Of a stretch of DNA of 64,000 nt, positions 4,004-28,029 are shown one piece after another. How positions within the stretch are numbered: the first letter of the stretch is position 1; the number at the start of each line of letters is the position of its first letter. The stretch is from NCBI GenBank assembly GCA_017654855.1, contig CM030338.1, positions 1,984,001 through 2,048,000 on the forward strand, read 5' to 3'. The stretch comes from Podospora anserina (lineage: Eukaryota). Both the position numbers and the translations under genes were made by a program. The notes beneath the pieces were generated by a model. That model searched no databases. It was given only the letters and a program-made list of their open reading frames with translations, and had not been told where the DNA came from.

Positions 4004-6012
4004 TCAAGCCTTGAGCGAGGCGACTGCTCGCGCCACCTCTTGGGAAGCTGTCTTCTCCCAGCTCTGTTTTGTATCTTCAGTGACGGCCGAAGGATCCTTA
4101 ACTTCTTCGTAAATCAAACGCGATATGTCACGGTTGATCTTCTCGTATTGCTCCGCCGTGAGCTGTCGATCACGCCAGTGAGGGCGGAGGGCTGCCTTGA
4201 CGATGCTGTTGATACTTTGTTTGAGCTCAAGAGGCAAGGTGGGGCGTGTCGGCGACACGTTTTCGGACCTTGGCAGCACAGCCGGACGATTGCGCCGAGG
4301 CTGGGGCTGCCTAAGCTCCAACGGCCGTGGATGCTGGCGCCCGCGAGGTTCCGAGTCGCTATTCTCGGGCGATGATCGGTTGTCGCGATGTGCGTGCTTG
4401 TGTGGCGATGTGGCTCGGGAAGGTTTGATGGAACTGGAGTTCGATGATGACGCCCGCGTTGGTGAGAAGTTCGCTGGTGGGTAGATAGGGGTGATGTGTG
4501 AGCTGAGCGTCATGTGCGGGGAACTAGAGCGCACAGGGGGAGGGGTAATGCATCCTTGGCTGAGAGGAGAAGGCGAGCGAGCAGGTGACGAGACATCATT
4601 CGCACCCGGTATGGGTCCATAGATATGTCGGAGGGTTTCTTCGTCGGAAGGGGTACTCATCTCGACCTCCTTCAGGAGCGAGGATAGAAACGAAGGGGGA
4701 ATATCGGTCGTTGTTCGCGAGGCGGCCCCGGGGTTGGCTGGTGAAGTGCCATTTGACTGCTCGGGCCGGTTTGAAGGCTCTGCTTCGGCTCTTGCGGCAG
4801 TAGACGATTCACCATTTTGGGTTGTCGGCATTCGCCTTGTTCTTGGTCGCTTCAGCTTCCTTTCGGGCTCTGGGTGCTGTTCCTCATGGGGCTCGGCCGT
4901 GCCTGAGCGCGACTTTCTCTTCCTGCTCTCGGTGGTTTCCCTGGCCTTTTCCAACGCACCCCAGGCCAATGTCTCCTCGCGCGACTCTTGTGGGGGTGGT
5001 GGCGGCGGAGCTGGGCGAGCGAGAATCGGCATATTATTAACGAAAACATCTCTTGCCCCCAAGCGACTCGCAATGTTTAGGCGTTGCTGCCAGCGTTCGT
5101 GTTCCTGCCTTTCTCTTTCTCGTAGTTGCTGTGACCGGCGCAGGCCCTCAAAGACGACCTGATCGTCATCGTCCTGGTAGTCCAAGTCCAGCTCAAGGGC
5201 GTCCCAGATCCGGCCAGTGATGCGGCCCCAAGCACCCTGCCATTCATCGGAGCGAGCCCGCTGCCTAGCGCGCCGCATGCTGGCCTGGGTGCGAGGGAAG
5301 TAATACAGAGGGCGTGCGCTGTTCTCTTGGAGGCCATTCCCGGCGGCAGCAGGCTGGATGAGCTCGGGACCAAGTGAGTGAACACATTCCATACAAAACC
5401 AGGGGCCAGCTGGGATTCGGTCAAGGCCGATGCAGTGCGTGTGATAGCATGCATCGCATCCGTCGCAAAGTAAAAGGACCTCTTCGTGGTCTGCCGAGTT
5501 GCACACAGGGCAGGGGTTGCTGACCACCACTTCTTCTTCTGGATTCTCATCTGCCCACGCCTGTGGATCGAACTCGGGTACCTGCTTCTTGTCCTCGACT
5601 CGACGGGTGGACAAGTACTGGCCTAGTGAAGGGGATGCATCAGTAAACAATGCATTTCTTTCATGCTCAGGAAAGAAGGGGCAAACTTACCTCCGATTCT
5701 GTCATAGACCGTGACGACATGGAAGGTCTGGCGGCAGATGGGGCAGCTGTTTGCCTTTTCGCTCCATTCTCTCAGACAGACATCGTGTAGCATGTGCCCA
5801 CAGATGGGAATCTGTGCAACATGGTGCTCCCGGCCCTCGAGCGGGAGCTCTTGCTTGCTGTTAAGTTCAGCAAGAGCATCTGGATCGGTGACAGCAAGAC
5901 GTGCATGCTCGGCCTCGAGCTCCTTGGAGAGGCGTTGTTGGGCGGGCGTTGTTGCATCTGGGTTGCTTTCGACCTCTAGGTTCTCAAGACAGACGATGCA
6001 CTGGTCAGCCAT
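4004..6012 (-). CDS. RING-H2 and PHD finger protein (Asr1/PHRF1-like putative E3 ligase) with a C-terminal helical, possibly SRI-like domain
   Basis: N-terminal CIVC...CGHMLHDVC...CPIC RING. Intron 5623-5690. PHD CPVC...LLLCDGCDACYHTHC...WFCMEC. C-terminus IVKAALRPHW...QYEKINRDISRLIYE. Confidence 0.88.
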
Positions 6013-20557: not shown

Positions 20558-22005
20558 ACAATGGTCTGCTATTCTTAATGAACCCGCTACTTGTGGGGCA
20601 ATGTTGGGTGGCCACGAGTGAACGGTGAACAGCGATGGAATCTTTGTCGAAACTCAATCCCTTCCTCCGGTTGGTGTGCTGTTCAATAAGAAGGACGTAT
20701 CTCTCAACAAGGTACTGAAAAAACTCATCGTTATTATGCAATCCACTGTAGTCTGATACCATTTACCTCAGCCTAAGATGATCTTGCAACTGAGTAATGA
20801 AAAAGATTGTGGAACCTGAGGAGCATTTGGATGTACCTGCCTAAAGGGTGTTAAAAAACGACCATTTCTCCCATTTATACGGGGCAAAGCCATCCTTTAT
20901 TTGTATAGAGTCTGTACTATTTTCATAGAGATTTTATGTTTAATTTATGGAGACCTTGTTTTTAAATTCTGAAGACTTTGGGTTTTGTTGGTGAAGATTT
21001 AATATTCGCTTTTTCAAGACTTAAGCTCTCGTGTATGTAGCGAGTTGGGATATTGCTCATAATCTTAATAACAAAGTGCACAATATATACTTTCTCAAAT
21101 CCCAGCTGCGTTCACTAACGTCCAAGTATCGTTTACGAACGTCAAAACACAAGACTCAGCAGCGTTTACAAACCCCATCTCCAATCAAAGCTCGGATCGA
21201 GTTTGGATGATATGTTTCTGGGTATGTTTGACCATACAAAATCCCAAAATTTAGCAATGAGACTTGTTAAACAACCAGCCATTTCCCCCCAAGGCACACA
21301 CTGCATAACACATAAAATCTTCACAGATCGAGCACAAAGACTTCACAAATATCCAAGGACATAAAACTTTCACAAATGGGAGAACAAAGTCTTTACAAAT
21401 AGAGCATAAACTCGCTCATAATTAGGTACCAGACTACCACTTTCTAGTTGTTTGTACAATATATCCTCAATCCCTATGCCCATCCCACATATTTTCCGCT
21501 TGCCTCCCTCCTTCCCCAGTGGTATCATTATGTATATTCTGTATGCAATCTTTTGTGTGCCTTATCAACGTTCCAAGTGCACACCTCTTTCCCCCCTTAA
21601 AACCCCCCTCAAACCAGACCATCCTGTCCATCCAGACCGGCTTTTGATGCTGAAAAATGTATTCAATCCATGATATAACCATGAATGTACGCCATGACCA
21701 TGCAATGCTATGCTTTTTGCCATGCTTGTGATGACCCAACTCCCCAAATATTCCCTCCTTTTTGGTATCCTCCTCTCCAAAATCCTTCTTCTCACTTCTC
21801 CAAATCAAATTCCGTGCTGAAAAATCATCAAACCGCTTCCTCCGGATGCTGTTGCCACTGTGATGATGTAGCAAACATGTCCATGAATCCTATCCTCCTC
21901 TTTCTATGTGAGATAACGGCTATATGTGGGAAAATGCCAACTGAACGTCAAAATACTGAGAGATCTCTCCCTTTCGCCATGATTTGGTGGGGTGATCTAT
22001 GCCTC

Positions 22006-22785
22006 TCAGGACTGTATGACCCGAGGGCGACGGCTCCTCAAGCCATATGAGTGAGCCGGTTGCGTCGACGTAGGAGCAACAGGCGAGGCCTGTCCTGGGG
22101 GAGGAGACGGCTCCCTACGAGGCCGCGGAAGCAGAGAAGGTCTCAGGGGCTCAAGTATCGACCCATCCTCCGAGGAGGGAGTCTTCTCGGCCGGCACCTT
22201 AAGCTTAATCATCGTCTTCTTCTTTATTGGCTCGGCCTCTGGCTCTTCTGCTGGCTTCACCTCCGCAGAGGGAGTCTTCTTGACCGGCGACTTGAGCTTG
22301 ATGATCGTTTTCTTCTTGACGGGCTCGACCTTTACCTCTTCCTCGGAAGGGGTCTTGCTTAGCTGCCGAAGTATAATCTTTGACGATGGCTTCTTATCTT
22401 CCTCCGGAGAGGGTGTCTTGCTAGACCACCGAATTATAATCTTCGGTGAACGCCGTGGTTCCTCAGGAATGGTCTCCAAAGTCTGCTTGATACACGGCAG
22501 GGTGGAACGGAGGCTGGATTCCATGACCGACACACCTTTGCCGGCATCCTCTACCCCTGTGTTGACCTTTGATGGGCCCCTTTCGCCACGTTGTATCCCT
22601 TGGTCGATGGAGAAAACGCCTGTCATACCGGCAGGAACACCTCTCTTCGACGACTGTGAGGCGTGAACATCAGCCAGATGGGCTTCCGCGGCGGGTGTTC
22701 TCCGGGTTCTCTTGAAGGTTCTCTCTTCGTTGACAATCTCGCTGACGCGCTTGTTCGTCTTCGTCTCACCTTCAAATCGCGCCTT
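22006..22785 (-). CDS. In-frame post-stop extension (259 codons) of the 22786-26092 gene; candidate stop-loss editing or readthrough exon
   Basis: No stop between the TAG at 22786-22788 and the TGA at 22006-22008. Reads KARFEGETKTNKRVSEIVNEERTFKRTRRTPAAEAHLADVHASQSSKRGVPAG and continues into the 206-aa ORF MTGVFSIDQG. Confidence 0.7.
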   Translation of the reverse strand, partial: KARFEGETKTNKRVSEIVNEERTFKRTRRTPAAEAHLADVHASQSSKRGVPAGMTGVFSIDQGIQRGERGPSKVNTGVEDAGKGVSVMESSLRSTLPCIKQTLETIPEEPRRSPKIIIRWSSKTPSPEEDKKPSSKIILRQLSKTPSEEEVKVEPVKKKTIIKLKSPVKKTPSAEVKPAEEPEAEPIKKKTMIKLKVPAEKTPSSEDGSILEPLRPSLLPRPRREPSPPPGQASPVAPTSTQPAHSYGLRSRRPRVIQS

Positions 22786-25700
22786 CTAGGCGGATTCGTC
22801 AGCGTTTGGCGGGTTAGCGTTGGCATCGCCGCGGGAGGAGCTCGGCTTGGGGCCCTTGCGGATGTTTTGGTGAGTCCATCCACGAATCTGTGTTGGACCA
22901 CTTCTAGGGGGAGCTTCTACAGCAGAATAGTCCTTGATAGCCTCACGATAGTCGAACTGTACAGTACGCAGCTCTTGCCCGTTGGCCGAGTAGGTCATAC
23001 GATGAGGTGGCGTCGGCGCAGGTTCTAGCTTGCGGTATTTAGACGACGCTGCTGAACCGGCAGCGGAAGCAGGGGGAGGGGCCGAGGCAGAGGAGCTTCC
23101 AGGTCGAGAGTGAGATGACTGCATGGGAGGTTGAGTAGCAGCGGGAAGAATAGGGGCATGAACACCCGGCGCCGGAGCTGGTGCGATCGGTGTATGATAG
23201 GGTGGCGAGACTGGATATGCAGTCGAGGGGCTAGGAGGGCGAGGTGCGAGCTGTTGCGTGCCAGGCGGGCCAGCCATGGGTGGTGCCTGGAGAGGTCCAG
23301 GACCAGGAGCGGGCATCAGAGGCTGTAGATGGTGCTGAGGCTCCGGTACGGAATAGCCGTTATGAAAAGGACGACTAGGCCCGACTGGGTAAAAGGCGCC
23401 GCTGTTCGTCATCACCATGCTACCGTGTTGAGGAACTGGACTATGCTGCTCAGGAGGGGGCGGGCTGTCGTTCAATAGGCTGCGCATAGGACGTAAGGCT
23501 GGTAAGCCTACACCTTGCCCTTGGGGTGCAAACGGTGTCCTACCGCCAGAAAGTTGGCTAGCCGGGTAGTCTTGTGGCGGGGCAGGTGGTGGAGGGTATA
23601 CCGGCGACTGGGGATTCAGTGCCGTACGGAGAAAATCTCCTCTGGCCGGCTCACTGGCATAGTGACCGGGCATACTCAGCCCATGGTAGCCCTCAGACAT
23701 CGGTGGACCATGGTACTCCTCGGGCGGCGGAGGATACTCACTGGGCTGGTAGTCAACGTGCGAACCATACTGGCGATGGTCGCGTGCCAGACCATCGACC
23801 TGCATCGGATTGTAAATCCGAGGGTCGATGTGAGCCGTTGCCTCATGTTCTCGGATCGCAATGTGTGCGAGAACATCCAGGCCAGTGGTATCCTCCGGGA
23901 CCGAGGAGTTGTCGAACCCGAGCGCGTCCCGCACCGCGTCGTACGGTTTGGAAGCGGCGCTCTTCACCGTTCGAGCAGCTTCTTCCTCACGCTCGCGCGC
24001 GAGGTCTCGCGCCTCGTCGTCCTCCAGAACCGCCGCAGCACGGAGCATGTCATCGGCGAACTGGCCAAAGCCAGCCGCCTGCTCCAGCGTGGACTCGGGC
24101 TCGGGCTCGGGCGCGGGAGTGGGTGGCGCCGGCGAGGGCTGGTACACCGTGTTGGGGTCCATGCCCCTCGCCGCCAGCTCCTCTCGCCGCAACCCTTCAA
24201 TCTCCTCCGCTGACGGAGTGATCTCCTCCTCCTCAACTCCTTCTTGCTCACAAATATGACTGAGCAAGGCCGAGAACTTTTTCTTCCCTTCCAGCTTTGC
24301 CTCGAGCTTGCTGAAGGCTCGGTCGGCTTTCGCAGCTGGGATGGTCCGAGACGCGTGGATAAGCTCCCCATTTGGGGGAACCAGCACGACCGGTTTCCAT
24401 GGGTCGACGACAGGTTTGGGCGACTCTTGGAGATTGGTGGAGGAGGGCAAAAAGATGCCGTACTTTGGGTGAAGATTGTGTTTCTTCACCTCGGCTTCAG
24501 GAAGCTCGCCAGCAGCCTCAGTGGAATCCCAAATTCCCACACGACGGTCGATGAACATGTAGTTGGAGTTGGGCTTCTGCCAATATTTGCCGCGACGAGC
24601 TTTGGTGGCGCCCTTCTCAGCAGAGTTGGTCGAATCGCGGAAACCAATATCGAGATCGTCCCACTCAAAAAGGTTTGGTACCATGATGCGGTTATTGGGG
24701 TTCTCAGCCTTGTTATTGCGGCGTACAATGAGGCGAACGCCGTACTCATCCGGGTCGAGAGCTCCGCGCGGAAGGGGCAGTTCGGGTCCGTCGGCGGGGT
24801 TGGGCTCGGCGGAAGTTCGGCGCTGCCCGCGCACCTCAGCAATGTCTCCGGCAGGCTCGGGCAGCGGCGTGGCAGCATTGGAGGCGGAATCTGGTGGAGT
24901 GGCGACAGTATCTTCGAGCGCTTCAGCTGCACCCAAAAGGCCAGCCGTGTGGCGTGGCAACTGACGCATGGCATCTTCGTCCTTGGCGGTTTGAAGGAGC
25001 TTCGAAGCTGGCTGACCGTCTGGTTGGCCATCGGCTTTTCTTTTCAAAGACTCCAGGGGCATGGTGGGCGGCTTGACCATAAGATCTCTAAGCTTAGTAC
25101 CAGGGAAGGGGACTTCAACACCATCGCGTTCCTCATGAAAGACTCCTTGGGCATCTCTCTCGGCCATTGTGATGGACTTATAGGTGTAGCTCTCGTCACG
25201 TGGCGGAGGATACTAGTCATGGTTAGAAAAATATGAACAGAGGTGAGCGCAAGAAAGGAAACATACATCGACGGGAAGTTTGAGGTTGTATTGGTGTTCG
25301 AAACGGTCGAGCTGTTGAAGAAGCTCACCGAGACGCTCCTCCTGCATCTCTTCCACCTGGCGCTAAACATATCTGTTAGTGAATGCTGTGTGTATGGAAG
25401 TAAAGATGAAAACTTACGGCATATGAAGCTCTGGCTGCTTCGACCTCGCCTTCATAAACACGCTGGGCCATCTGACGGCTCATCTCGAGAATTCGATCAT
25501 TCTGGCTGAGCGTGTCTTCGTATCGCTGCTTCAGGAACTTTTGAGCGACGTCGAATTCGGGTACTCTCTCAACGACACCAGGGTCTTCAAGAAGCTGATT
25601 GATCGACCTGTCGGCGATCTCTTGGGCTGCTGGCTTGACTAACTTGGAGAGCACGCCCCAGGCCTGCTTCAGCTCCTGCGCTCTCTCGTGGGCAGCTTGT

Positions 25701-26092
25701 ACTTTGCTGTCCTCATAAAGTTTCTGACGACGACCGCGACCGGCGGGAGCTTTCGGTTGTGATGACTTGCCACCACGACCTCTGCCTCCGCGGGAGCCGC
25801 CACGACCGCGGCCTCCACGAGCTCGGGTACTGGTTGGGGCGGCGCGGGTGGAAGTCGAAGGTTGCTGTGGGATGATATCAGACATGGTGTCTTCAGCCTC
25901 TAGGGCATCGGCAACAGAGGAGAAGCTCTGCTGCAAGTTCATGTTGTTGACGGATTTGGATGGCATCTCATGAATGACGAGTTTCCGTTGTATGGGAGTC
26001 GAGGTAAAAGAAGTAGGTGTGGGAAAAGAGAGAGTTGGGTGAGAATTTGTAATGGGCGATGCCAGGTGTGAGCGGTGCTGCTCAATGTCCAT
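22786..26092 (-). CDS. Large uncharacterised, probably nuclear protein (RGG-rich N-terminus, helical region, Pro-rich C-terminus)
   Basis: Exons 26092-25418, 25362-25267 and 25212-22786 join in frame via canonical GTAAGT/GTATGT...TAG introns, and include the 793-aa ORF. The exact start codon is uncertain. Confidence 0.8.
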
Positions 26093-28029
26093 TGCTCTCC
26101 ATTCGGCAACTGTAAACAATAGCAGGTGAATACCTGAGCTCTGACCACCGGTGCTGGGTGAATATGGGAGGATGAGTCGTATATAAATGAACAATAGCAA
26201 ATGTCGTCAATCGGCGGTGCAAGTCGGTCGATGACAGACCAAAGCTTGCTCCGTGTAGATGTAAAAACCGGGAGGCCGGGGGAAAGCCAAGCAGCCGTGA
26301 TGCAAAAGACGAAAAAAAACCTGTCGATGTCGAAAGATCAAAGACTTCTCCAGATGATGATTCCCTCGATCCAAGTATAAGAGGGCAGGACGAAGGTTAT
26401 CCAGTGTGTCACCAGATGTAGGCAGTTTGGTTGGTTTGTGGCTTTTGGTCAAGCAGCTGTGGCGGGTGTGAGTGAAGAAAGGGTTGGCAGAGTCGCTCTC
26501 TTGGTGCAAACTGCTTGCAGCAGCGGCTCAGGGTAGGGTACCAGCGAGGGTCAAGTAATGACAGCGGCGCAGTGGCGACACACCAGGTAAGAGAAGGGGA
26601 AAATATAATCAGAAGAAAGCTGAGAGACAAGAGATTCTGATGCAATTGCTGCTGGCCGTCTGGAACCAGGGACGCGGCCGTGAAGTCGTGGCTGGTGTTG
26701 TCCTTCACCTGTAAAGGATGGGAATAATAGACAGTGGACCACGAAGCAGGCCTGTGCTGAGCGTGCTGCATTTCCAGAGCACACTGAGCCCGCACTGTGT
26801 CCGCTGGAGGCCAAGCCAAAAGGGAGTCCAGCCTTGGGTTGCTCCACCGAGGCTTAACCGACGAAACAGCCAATCACAGCGCCGCATTGACTTCCCAATC
26901 AGGAACTAGTCGCAACCGTTCACAACAGCTTACAAAAATTGGTCGTATGTCTTTGCAAACTCTCTCGATGCTAGGGGCTACAAGTGTGTAGTGAATATTC
27001 AGAGGGGTATCTGGTAGCTGCTAGCTCCGATAAGATCTGGGGACTGTCTCGTCATCAACCCCCGGCATCGTGGCGCGGACGGGAGGAGGACTTCGACTGC
27101 AAAAATCAAATTCTGCAACGGGCCACGTTGGTGTCAGTGCTCTGACAGCTGCAACAGCCTCGCCCGAAGATGTTTATGCGTTTCTACAGAGTGTGAATGT
27201 GGCATATGCTATAATGCCATTGGTTCAGGCACCAAGGCGGTGAAATATTGCCCAGAAACACAGTTGTACCACATTGAACTGGCAGCCCGCCCTGATCCCG
27301 AGATTGAATGAGCTGTCAATGACATTGCGGCCCAGCAGCCTGTCTGGCATCTGCACATCACCTGGTCTGCGTCGGCTCCTCTGACGCACATATCAGTCTC
27401 GGACCTCGCTTTCCTGTGAGTTCCCCGACGTCCGGGTGCCCGGTGAGTATTGGCTGCTTGCTGAATTTGAAATGACCAAATCCCCATTGCCGGGTTCGCC
27501 GTTGAAGAGCGCGGGCCAGTGGATCCGGCTGCTTCAAGGGCGCTCCCGTCACTCACGAGAACGGCGACCACTCACAGATACATACGGATCTTCAAATAGA
27601 TTTCAATCTGATTTATTAAGCATATCTCTCGGCCATTGATTAAACTCACGATCTACTTCGTACCTATGTCTTCCATATCTCAAGTCCTGTTGCCAGCATT
27701 TCCTCAAACCAGGGCCGGCAAAATGGACAAAGGGGTTCTGCGGAGCCCCAAAACGGGCAAACCCACTTTTCAAGCAGCTTCCGGGGCCGGCTTGGCGCTA
27801 AGAGCCCAGTGCAACCCCACTGCCGCGCGCCTGTGCGGCTGGAACCATGCCGCTTGCCTGCCGGGACCCAGCCTTTTTTTCTGCCATCCATCATCTCCTC
27901 CGTCTCCCGGCAGATCGCCGAGTCGCCCCGTTACGTCCGTCCACCTCCGGCCCGATATCGACTACGACAGCTTCTGAATCCCATCCAACGACTTTTTATA
28001 TCCCAAAGAAACTGAATCTCAGCTCACAA

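Follow-up and report, generated by a model that had tools for sequence, protein, structure and literature searches.

A hairpin-embedded UAG in the Podospora anserina RLP1 orthologue is a probable, deeply conserved site of A-to-I stop-loss editing

Why does a reading frame stay open for 259 codons beyond a stop codon at which most homologues of the gene are annotated to end? The question is raised by a minus-strand gene of Podospora anserina, the orthologue of Neurospora crassa rlp1, which lies in a 64,000-nucleotide stretch of GenBank assembly GCA_017654855.1 (contig CM030338.1, positions 1,984,001 to 2,048,000; hereafter the window, in whose coordinates positions are given). A first-pass annotation of this DNA had proposed that the UAG ending the gene is converted to a tryptophan codon by adenosine-to-inosine (A-to-I) editing of the mRNA in the course of sexual development, giving a short vegetative isoform and a fruiting-body isoform about 260 residues longer. 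Here we compare the stop, the sequence that follows it and the RNA structure around it with those of relatives, and weigh editing against four other explanations. We consider the RLP1 UAG likely to be a deeply conserved A-to-I stop-loss editing site; the support for this reading is comparative and structural, not direct.

The reading frame continues beyond the stop codon

The minus-strand open reading frame (ORF) reads ...GAC GAA TCC GCC TAG AAG GCG..., with TAG at 22788-22786. As first described, the frame then stays open for 259 codons to a TGA at 22008-22006. Among the 4464 intervals from stop to stop in the window's six reading frames, only 18 have 259 codons or more.

22786..22788, minus strand: UAG stop, with the candidate edited adenosine at 22787 (T on the plus strand); read from the sequence, with TAG in 19 of 23 related loci
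22009..22785, minus strand: in-frame extension of 259 codons, rich in Pro, Ser, Lys, Glu and Arg; an ORF with homologous extensions in relatives, that of P0118 being 49% identical
22006..22008, minus strand: TGA closing the extension; read from the sequence, P0118 terminating at the homologous residue

The stop is not a sequencing error, because the contigs of four sequencing runs agree with the window at 22787 and annotated orthologues end at ...DESA. This end is common to the annotated orthologues of Podospora pseudocomata, P. pseudopauciseta, P. comata, P. bellae-mahoneyi and P. pseudoanserina, and the same C-terminal end is found in those of more distant genera. A sense codon at this position in orthologues, which the first-pass annotation had named as a way in which its proposal might fail, was not found.

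TAG precedes every extension among related loci

We scanned metagenome contigs and obtained 31 loci from relatives at 32-57% protein identity, of which 23 reach the C-terminus and form the basis of the stop counts. The stop at the homologous position is TAG in 19 of these loci and TAA in four; TGA does not occur. An in-frame open stretch of at least 100 codons (101-576) is present in 13 loci, with TAG before each. L022 has TAG followed by at least 72 open codons that run off the contig, and L029 and L030 have TAG followed by 58 codons closing in the terminal motif described below. Several loci are redundant (L004 equals L005, L029 equals L030 and L009 equals L010; L008 is close to L025 and L001 to L023; L002, L004 and L006 are related), and once this is allowed for there remain about twelve extension-bearing lineages and five without an extension. 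UAG, with U at -1 and G at +1 of the A, can be edited to UGG in one step, and TAG is the stop at every extension-bearing locus.

TAA is confined to lineages without an extension (L009/L010, L016 and L017), and after the four TAA stops the frame closes within 11-83 unrelated codons. No extension-like ORF was found downstream, in any frame, in L003, L008/L025, L009, L016 or L017. The use of TAA in these lineages fits a relaxed constraint on stop identity after loss of the extension. In L017 (2952-2994) the TAA still lies in the loop of a 4-bp hairpin.

The extension is coding sequence of the same cistron

We calculated the ratio of non-synonymous to synonymous substitution rates (dN/dS) for the extension in closely related pairs. 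Five pairs gave 0.27, 0.41, 0.65, 0.51 and 0.32, against 0.08-0.22 for the 180 codons upstream of the stop; a sixth pair was saturated. Between lineages, synonymous sites are near saturation (proportion of synonymous differences, pS, 0.65-0.78). A search of the extension against 1.84 billion representative sequences returned two matches only, namely the 206-residue ORF that forms part of the extension itself and P0118, from a relative. The window extension has four internal repeats, of which P0118, 49% identical to it, cleanly lacks one; both stop at the same residue. The tail has diverged too far for sequence searches, and its distribution rests on the metagenomic loci.

Three kinds of motif can be recognized in the extension:

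22699..22713, minus strand: basic cluster KRTRR, resembling a nuclear localization signal (NLS), upstream of the first Met (ATG 22626); from alignment with relatives
22141..22446, minus strand: four internal repeats of about 25-30 residues, with the pattern ..K-I/T-I-I-K/R-..-K-T-P-S-.-E-E..; from the sequence, P0118 having one fewer
22021..22053, minus strand: conserved terminal motif HSYGLRSRRPR; relatives have RSPYNLRSRRG, HSSYRLRNRGG or RRSARLRAR

Clusters of the RKR(T/A)R type occur 9-31 residues after the stop in most relatives. The terminal motif is alignable in ten sequences and reads RSPYNLRSRRG in most relatives and RRSARLRAR in distant ones; a profile of it (A3) compared with PDB sequences gave only chance-level matches (E 1.6 and 2.8), to a trypanosomatid ribosome-associated protein. 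The four repeats of the window (..KIIIRWSSKTPSPEE.., ..KIILRQLSKTPSEEE.., ..KKKTIIKLKSPVKKTPSAE.. and ..KKKTMIKLKVPAEKTPSSE..) are arranged in a tandem-like manner. Repeats of the extension are largely lineage-specific: a K-I-I-K-L-K repeat was considered as a general feature of the relatives and rejected, as it is found only in the window (4 copies), L001 and L027. Where its contig stops, the L006 extension (5443-5909) consists of four or more tandem copies of a 10-residue unit, ..NNARMLTPAL... Tails of this kind are prone to repeat expansion.

The 206-residue ORF said to be absorbed by the extension does exist: it opens at ATG 22626, and its exact sequence is present in the protein collection, from Logan assemblies only. 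The locus might accordingly hold two cistrons, with a separate 206-residue protein made from this ATG, by its own transcript or by re-initiation, and a frame shared with the body only by coincidence. That the ORF is called in Logan assemblies agrees with this, as does, weakly, the 2-4 times greater depth of the contigs covering the 3' part in three runs (X10, X11 and X13). However, conserved coding sequence begins directly after the stop, before any Met, and the positions of Met are not conserved. The first Met comes after the basic cluster in 9 of 15 sequences, and three of the 15 extensions have no Met at all, among them that of L007, with its 204 codons. Each of the 13 long extensions continues the frame of the stop, the depth breakpoints vary between runs in a way that fits 3' bias and not a fixed start, and no NCBI annotation names such a gene. 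An independent gene starting at 22626 is thus argued against, and we judge the two-cistron arrangement to be very improbable.

Another possibility is that the stop is an ordinary one and that what follows is a decaying, unexpressed remnant of a C-terminal domain cut off by a nonsense mutation. The extension does evolve faster than the body, as the dN/dS values above show, its identity to that of a near relative is 49% compared with about 89% for the body, and some lineages have lost it. Against this, 101-576 codons have stayed open in a dozen lineages despite near-saturated synonymous sites, and a dN/dS below 1, the terminal motif, the position of the stop and a covarying hairpin (see below) have all been retained. 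We give the idea of a remnant hardly any credence. By these comparisons the extension is coding sequence under purifying selection, in what is read as the same cistron as the body.

The stop lies in the loop of a covarying hairpin

Refolding recovered the stem proposed earlier, with 9 bp, one bulged C and UAG in the loop. In the window its elements are as follows:

22773..22798, minus strand: hairpin with UAG in the loop, consisting of an inner CGCC/GGCG helix, a bulged C, and an outer GAAUC/GAUUU helix plus a C-G pair; fold z -3.26 and -4.78, with covariation in 14 sequences
22801-22804 pairing with 22767-22770, minus strand: further 4-bp helix by the hairpin; from the fold

A 46-nucleotide (nt) fold of the window sequence has a minimum free energy (MFE) of -18.2 kcal/mol, compared with a mean of -8.9 for shuffled sequences (z -3.26; 2 of 200 shuffles were as good). 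For a 43-nt fold z is -4.78, and none of 200 shuffles was as stable. The MFE structure adds a U-A pair, leaving a 3-nt AGA loop, and an outer C-G pair; with or without these the A of UAG is unpaired. When sequences are folded singly, 13 of the 14 extension-bearing sequences form a hairpin that has the stop at its centre and the A of TAG in its terminal loop.

We then considered these 14 sequences together in an ungapped alignment anchored on TAG (A2). The alignment supports a 7-bp helix, in which 80.6% of cells can pair compared with 62.2% in shuffles (none of the 500 was as high), although these shuffle-based statistics overstate independence because the sequences are related. Controls in which the helix was slid along A2 gave 37-50% paired cells. 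Changes on both sides are seen in six of the seven helix pairs, and RNAalifold independently returned a 6-bp stem with a 7-nt loop and compensatory changes at all six pairs. The consensus loop is Y-U-A-G-R-A-N, with U-A-G at positions 2-4, so that the candidate A is third and is preceded by U. Position 5, the base after the stop, is a purine in all 14 sequences (A in 11, G in 3), and position 6 is A in 12 of 14. Codons at the end of the body and at the start of the extension make up the stem, and the residues flanking the stop co-vary (SA*KA, FA*NA, PS*VEG, PS*KG). On either side of the stop the encoded residues follow the changes of the stem, and the constraint is therefore on the RNA.

The form of the hairpin bears on programmed translational read-through, in which the unedited UAG would be decoded by a near-cognate tRNA, aided by RNA structure, to give a low constitutive level of the long isoform. 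A conserved in-frame extension and a conserved stop identity would be equally expected on this account, and no edited RNA was seen in contigs or ORFs. However, a purine after the stop favours termination, and read-through stimulators sit some bases downstream of the stop, whereas here the purine is invariant and the hairpin encloses the stop in its loop. The known leaky contexts, UGA-CUAG and UAG-CARYYA, are absent, and U-A at loop positions 2-3 matches the substrate rule of the adenosine deaminases acting on tRNA (ADAT). Read-through is in our view unlikely.

A conserved TAG, a hairpin around it and an open extension with dN/dS below 1, which the first-pass annotation had suggested looking for in orthologues, are thus all found among relatives at 32-57% identity.

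The gene is an rlp1 orthologue with a conserved short end

The proteins closest to the gene product are from Podospora species (order Sordariales; 99% identity). N. crassa NCU09007 (P0018) was recovered with the C-terminal region alone (E 3.5e-33) and is 49% identical over the aligned body (alignment A1), with common invariant blocks that include the C-terminal IRGWTHNN. The two proteins belong to the same family and share the same conserved blocks, and a Pfam search returned no family for the body, the extension, P0001 or P0018, so that neither has a Pfam domain. This sequence evidence makes the minus-strand gene the orthologue, in Podospora, of rlp1 (NCU09007) from Neurospora.

A tblastn search with the closest homologue as query placed three exons (26092-25418, 25362-25267 and 25212-22789):

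25418..26092, minus strand: exon 1 of the RLP1 orthologue, 225 codons, ATG at 26092; tblastn with P0001 residues 1-225, 99.6% identity
25363..25417, minus strand: intron 1, 55 nt, GTAAGT...CTAAC...TAG; from the sequence, the spliced Logan ORF P0088 reading ...ASYA|RQVEE...
25267..25362, minus strand: exon 2, 32 codons; tblastn and P0088
25213..25266, minus strand: intron 2, 54 nt, GTATGT...CTAAC...TAG; from the sequence, P0088 reading ...LPVD|YPPPRDES...
22789..25212, minus strand: exon 3, the main body, 808 codons, ending ...NADESA; ORF and tblastn, orthologues stopping at the same residue

Both introns have a canonical donor and CTAAC and TAG signals. The annotated product has 1065 residues and the C-terminus ...NADESA. 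Both splice junctions are confirmed by P0088, an ORF from Logan assemblies (contigs up to 5199 nt) that also ends in NADESA and shows that the gene is transcribed.

We next compared the C-termini of 81 homologues. In 72 of them the protein ends within 70 residues of the IRGWTHNN block, and all 72 have an acidic residue among the last six (typically ..DEPSA, ..DESA or ..EEPS). The other nine are annotated as long forms, in which the acidic end is skipped and 170-390 more residues follow, closing in a motif like RSPYNLRSRRG or HSSYRLRNRGG that is homologous to the ...AHSYGLRSRRPRVIQS of the window. None of the 81 has Trp at the junction. Long models include NCU09007 (1444 residues), CHGG_03207 (Chaetomium globosum), and those of Parachaetomium and Thermothelomyces myriococcoides. 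Public models disagree with one another (P0018, P0016, P0017, P0007, P0029, P0069 and P0111 as against P0110 and P0100), the stop being either kept or bridged by a predicted intron. For Sordaria macrospora the old model has 1403 residues and the revised one 1110, ending ...NTEETS.

These models raise the possibility that body and extension are joined by alternative splicing, through an intron whose ..C-TAG| acceptor would remove the last codons together with the stop. Nine of the 81 homologues are annotated in this way, several public models assuming the intron; the P0017 model resumes at KAGGGGG, the sequence that follows TAG in relatives; and the window has CTAAC and CTGAC at 28 and 13 nt before TAG. 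However, a GTRNGT donor is present within 240 nt upstream of TAG in none of 15 sequences. The sole in-phase GT of the window (GTAGAA at 22920) does not have the conserved G at +5, and its use would delete the most conserved block, IRGWTH. The letters that would serve as branch point are those of conserved Asp-Glu codons, and L001, L007, L021, L022 and L026 do not retain them. P0088, itself spliced, still ends in NADESA, the N. crassa ORF P0100 ends ...TTEEAS, the revised S. macrospora model is the short form, and the contigs of four runs show no joint, that of run X1 being unbroken across the stop. Splicing around the stop therefore appears very unlikely.

The Logan ORF P0100 ends where the NCU09007 model jumps ahead, and the intron in that model is, because of this, a prediction. 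Solely from the ...TTEEAS end of P0100, we infer an in-frame TAG and hairpin in Neurospora as well. In its accessible text, the paper that describes rlp1 (PMC11317574) uses the 1444-residue model, with the extension included through the predicted intron, and is silent on the stop, on editing, on the C-terminus and on sexual development. The long public RLP1 models probably contain a false intron, and tagging or truncating RLP1 at the C-terminus of the long model may mean working on a protein that is absent from vegetative cells.

An assembled contig runs through the stop

We aligned the contigs of four runs, from four studies, to 21300-26500; 24 runs had been found, none of them recorded as RNA, their kind being guessed or unknown and their stage not given. 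Such assembled contigs retain the majority allele only, so that a minority edited allele is invisible in them. Continuity to below 22006, which the editing proposal calls for in the transcript, is seen in one X1 contig that spans 21427-25253 unbroken and with no differing letter. No splice joints, indels, other letters or loose ends are listed for the contigs of the four runs over 21300-26500. In three runs the contigs stop at 21415-21427, which hints weakly at a 3' end (no DNA run was placed alongside) and delimits one further feature:

21427..22005, minus strand: rest of the 3' untranslated sequence, GC 44%; limit from the contig ends of three runs (21415-21427)

About 580 nt thus separate the TGA of the extension from the contig ends, and roughly 1.36 kb would follow the stop of the unedited mRNA, a long 3' untranslated region for a fungus. 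The contig cover fits one mRNA that carries both the body and the extension, with about 1.36 kb after the UAG, but is no proof of it.

The depth difference in X10, X11 and X13, mentioned above in connection with two cistrons, is a weak measure because depths are given per contig. The points at which depth changes differ between these runs (22713, 23021 and 22913), and all three have stretches without cover upstream of 23700. Contigs break and overlap at 22683-22713, where the KRTRR cluster is encoded. An X10 contig (21426-22713) has four letters unlike the window, probably close to the contig end; these may be strain differences, errors or further edited sites.

Points that weigh against editing

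Several observations do not favour the editing reading. Edited RNA was not observed, the four contigs that cover 22787 all having the genomic letter, in runs whose stage is not given. Not one of the 15 proteins in the Podospora cluster is a read-through form, and a search for short junction-spanning ORFs with a sense codon gave two matches, neither of which spans the junction. These absences are weak negative evidence, because contigs keep only the majority allele and no stage is given for the runs. We found no demonstration of mRNA editing in Podospora in the literature examined; a preprint on P. anserina reportedly describes ADAT genes as differentially expressed, with nothing more on editing.

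The hairpin, too, is uneven. The MFE structure of the window itself has a 3-nt loop with the U paired, not a 7-nt loop, and z reaches -2 or lower in only six of the 14 extension-bearing sequences, the other eight being no better than shuffles (z -1.7 to +0.2). L027 has no hairpin in the 43-nt fold, and L029/L030 have a short homologous extension with no hairpin at the stop. Finally, TAG is still used in two lineages that lack an extension (L003 and L008/L025).

Of the interpretation offered in the first-pass annotation, the comparative predictions have held up; an A>G change at 22787 was not seen in the contigs, and the stage-specific isoforms are a proposal. We regard editing of the RLP1 UAG as the probable explanation.

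A proposed switch between two RLP1 products

Under this reading, the stop codon would be a conserved substrate of ADAT-type (Tad2/Tad3) A-to-I mRNA editing in the fruiting bodies of Sordariomycetes. In vegetative cells the unedited mRNA would give the 1065-residue protein ending ...NADESA. In perithecia the A at 22787 would be deaminated and the resulting UIG read as Trp, and the edited mRNA would give a protein 260 residues longer, with the junction peptide GDANANPPNADESAWK. The long form would gain the basic NLS-like cluster, the four short repeats and the conserved Arg-rich terminal motif. Given its conserved motifs and the purifying selection acting on them, the extension probably alters the activity of RLP1 and RPD3L or the place where they act, and is more than a generic destabilizing tail.

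The accessible text of earlier work agrees with such a substrate. In Fusarium graminearum, 85.7% of edited sites have U at -1 and 62.4% lie in hairpin loops, the proportion being higher among highly edited sites; editing is restricted to perithecia and includes 323 UAG-to-UGG stop-loss events (PMC4817773). Fungal mRNA editing is carried out by Tad2/Tad3, which deaminate A34 in the tRNA anticodon loop, where U33 is invariant, and it has been reported in the Sordariales N. crassa and S. macrospora (PMC11156358). The consensus loop at RLP1 has 7 nt and U-A at positions 2-3, which is the U33-A34 geometry of the tRNA substrate. Its AGA and AGG triplets are also anticodons found in natural ADAT substrates, tRNA-Ser and tRNA-Pro. 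It differs in that the RLP1 hairpin lies in an mRNA with no tRNA body, and in that its stem has at least 6 bp and often closes to a 3- or 5-nt loop. ARAGORN found no tRNA gene in the window, and the stretch 21400-23200 gave no Rfam match at E up to 1.

For N. crassa, and in that species only, the accessible text of PMC11317574 reports that NCU09007, named rlp1 for RPD3L protein 1, was recovered together with the RPD3L histone deacetylase complex, immunoprecipitation and mass spectrometry having shown it in association with SDS3, HDA-3 and SIN3; rlp1 is required for silencing of H3K27-methylated genes and acts in vegetative cells. A more far-reaching idea is a chromatin switch, in which a single edit makes a longer RLP1 whose tail tethers or retargets the deacetylase complex and so reprogrammes facultative heterochromatin for sexual development, the arrangement being maintained across Sordariomycetes by a mimic of the anticodon loop in the mRNA. 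This is a tentative idea that we find rather doubtful. The RRSARLRAR form of the terminal motif resembles the HMGN arginine anchor, which binds the nucleosome acidic patch; the PDB profile search gave no support for this likeness. If editing does occur, it would tie sexual-stage RNA editing to an RPD3L subunit that silences Polycomb-marked genes and would suggest a route by which editing could reprogramme chromatin in development.

Relation to known stop-loss and restorative editing

Stop-loss editing of a hairpin-embedded TAG is already known. In the accessible text of PMC13123824, DBF2 has a conserved TAG of this kind that is edited across eight Sordariomycetes, and the RLP1 site resembles it in the hairpin-embedded TAG and in being, probably, of the stop-loss type. 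The tail of DBF2 is, however, 24 residues long and acts as a generic destabilizing element (PMC13123824), whereas that of RLP1 has 259 residues (101-576 in relatives), conserved motifs and the mark of purifying selection; editing has been demonstrated for DBF2 and is inferred for RLP1. What is unusual at RLP1 is the length of the extension, its conserved motifs and the covariation of the hairpin.

The site also resembles those of 'restorative' editing, in which a premature stop is corrected, as in PUK1 and CHE1 of F. graminearum (accessible parts of PMC4817773, PMC11156358 and PMC11169179), in that a UAG interrupts what acts like a single long conserved coding region, whose full-length product would depend on editing. 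Stop-loss is hard to tell from correction of a premature stop (PMC13684035), and RLP1 falls between these categories. The short RLP1 product is, unlike in those cases, itself complete and conserved, 72 of 81 homologues ending there. For this reason, and because N. crassa rlp1 is active in vegetative cells, the site would act as a switch from one product to another, not as a means of repairing a pseudogene.

Whether fungal stop-loss editing is adaptive or mostly error has been disputed in 2026 (PMC13123824, in its accessible text, as against PMC13684035). RLP1 offers a test case for this dispute, with a stop, a covarying hairpin and a selected long extension that are all shared by relatives as far as about 40% protein identity. 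Conservation of this kind at the RLP1 stop is not easily explained by molecular error. We found no published description of the RLP1 site, and none of A-to-I editing tied to rlp1 or RPD3L subunits, in the main texts of the literature; supplementary editing catalogues may list an NCU09007 or SMAC_01962 site.

Other open frames at the locus

Two further ORFs that match the window exactly are found in several public sources. P0082 (793 residues) starts at an internal Met of exon 3 and covers 22789-25167, and P0083 (238 residues) is exon 1 (25418-26092) read on into intron 1. Judging from these two sequences, some annotation of this species may have the RLP1 orthologue in pieces or cut short. The plus strand has a 203-codon open frame antisense to the extension (22055-22666), which we regard as a side effect of GC-rich minus-strand coding sequence.

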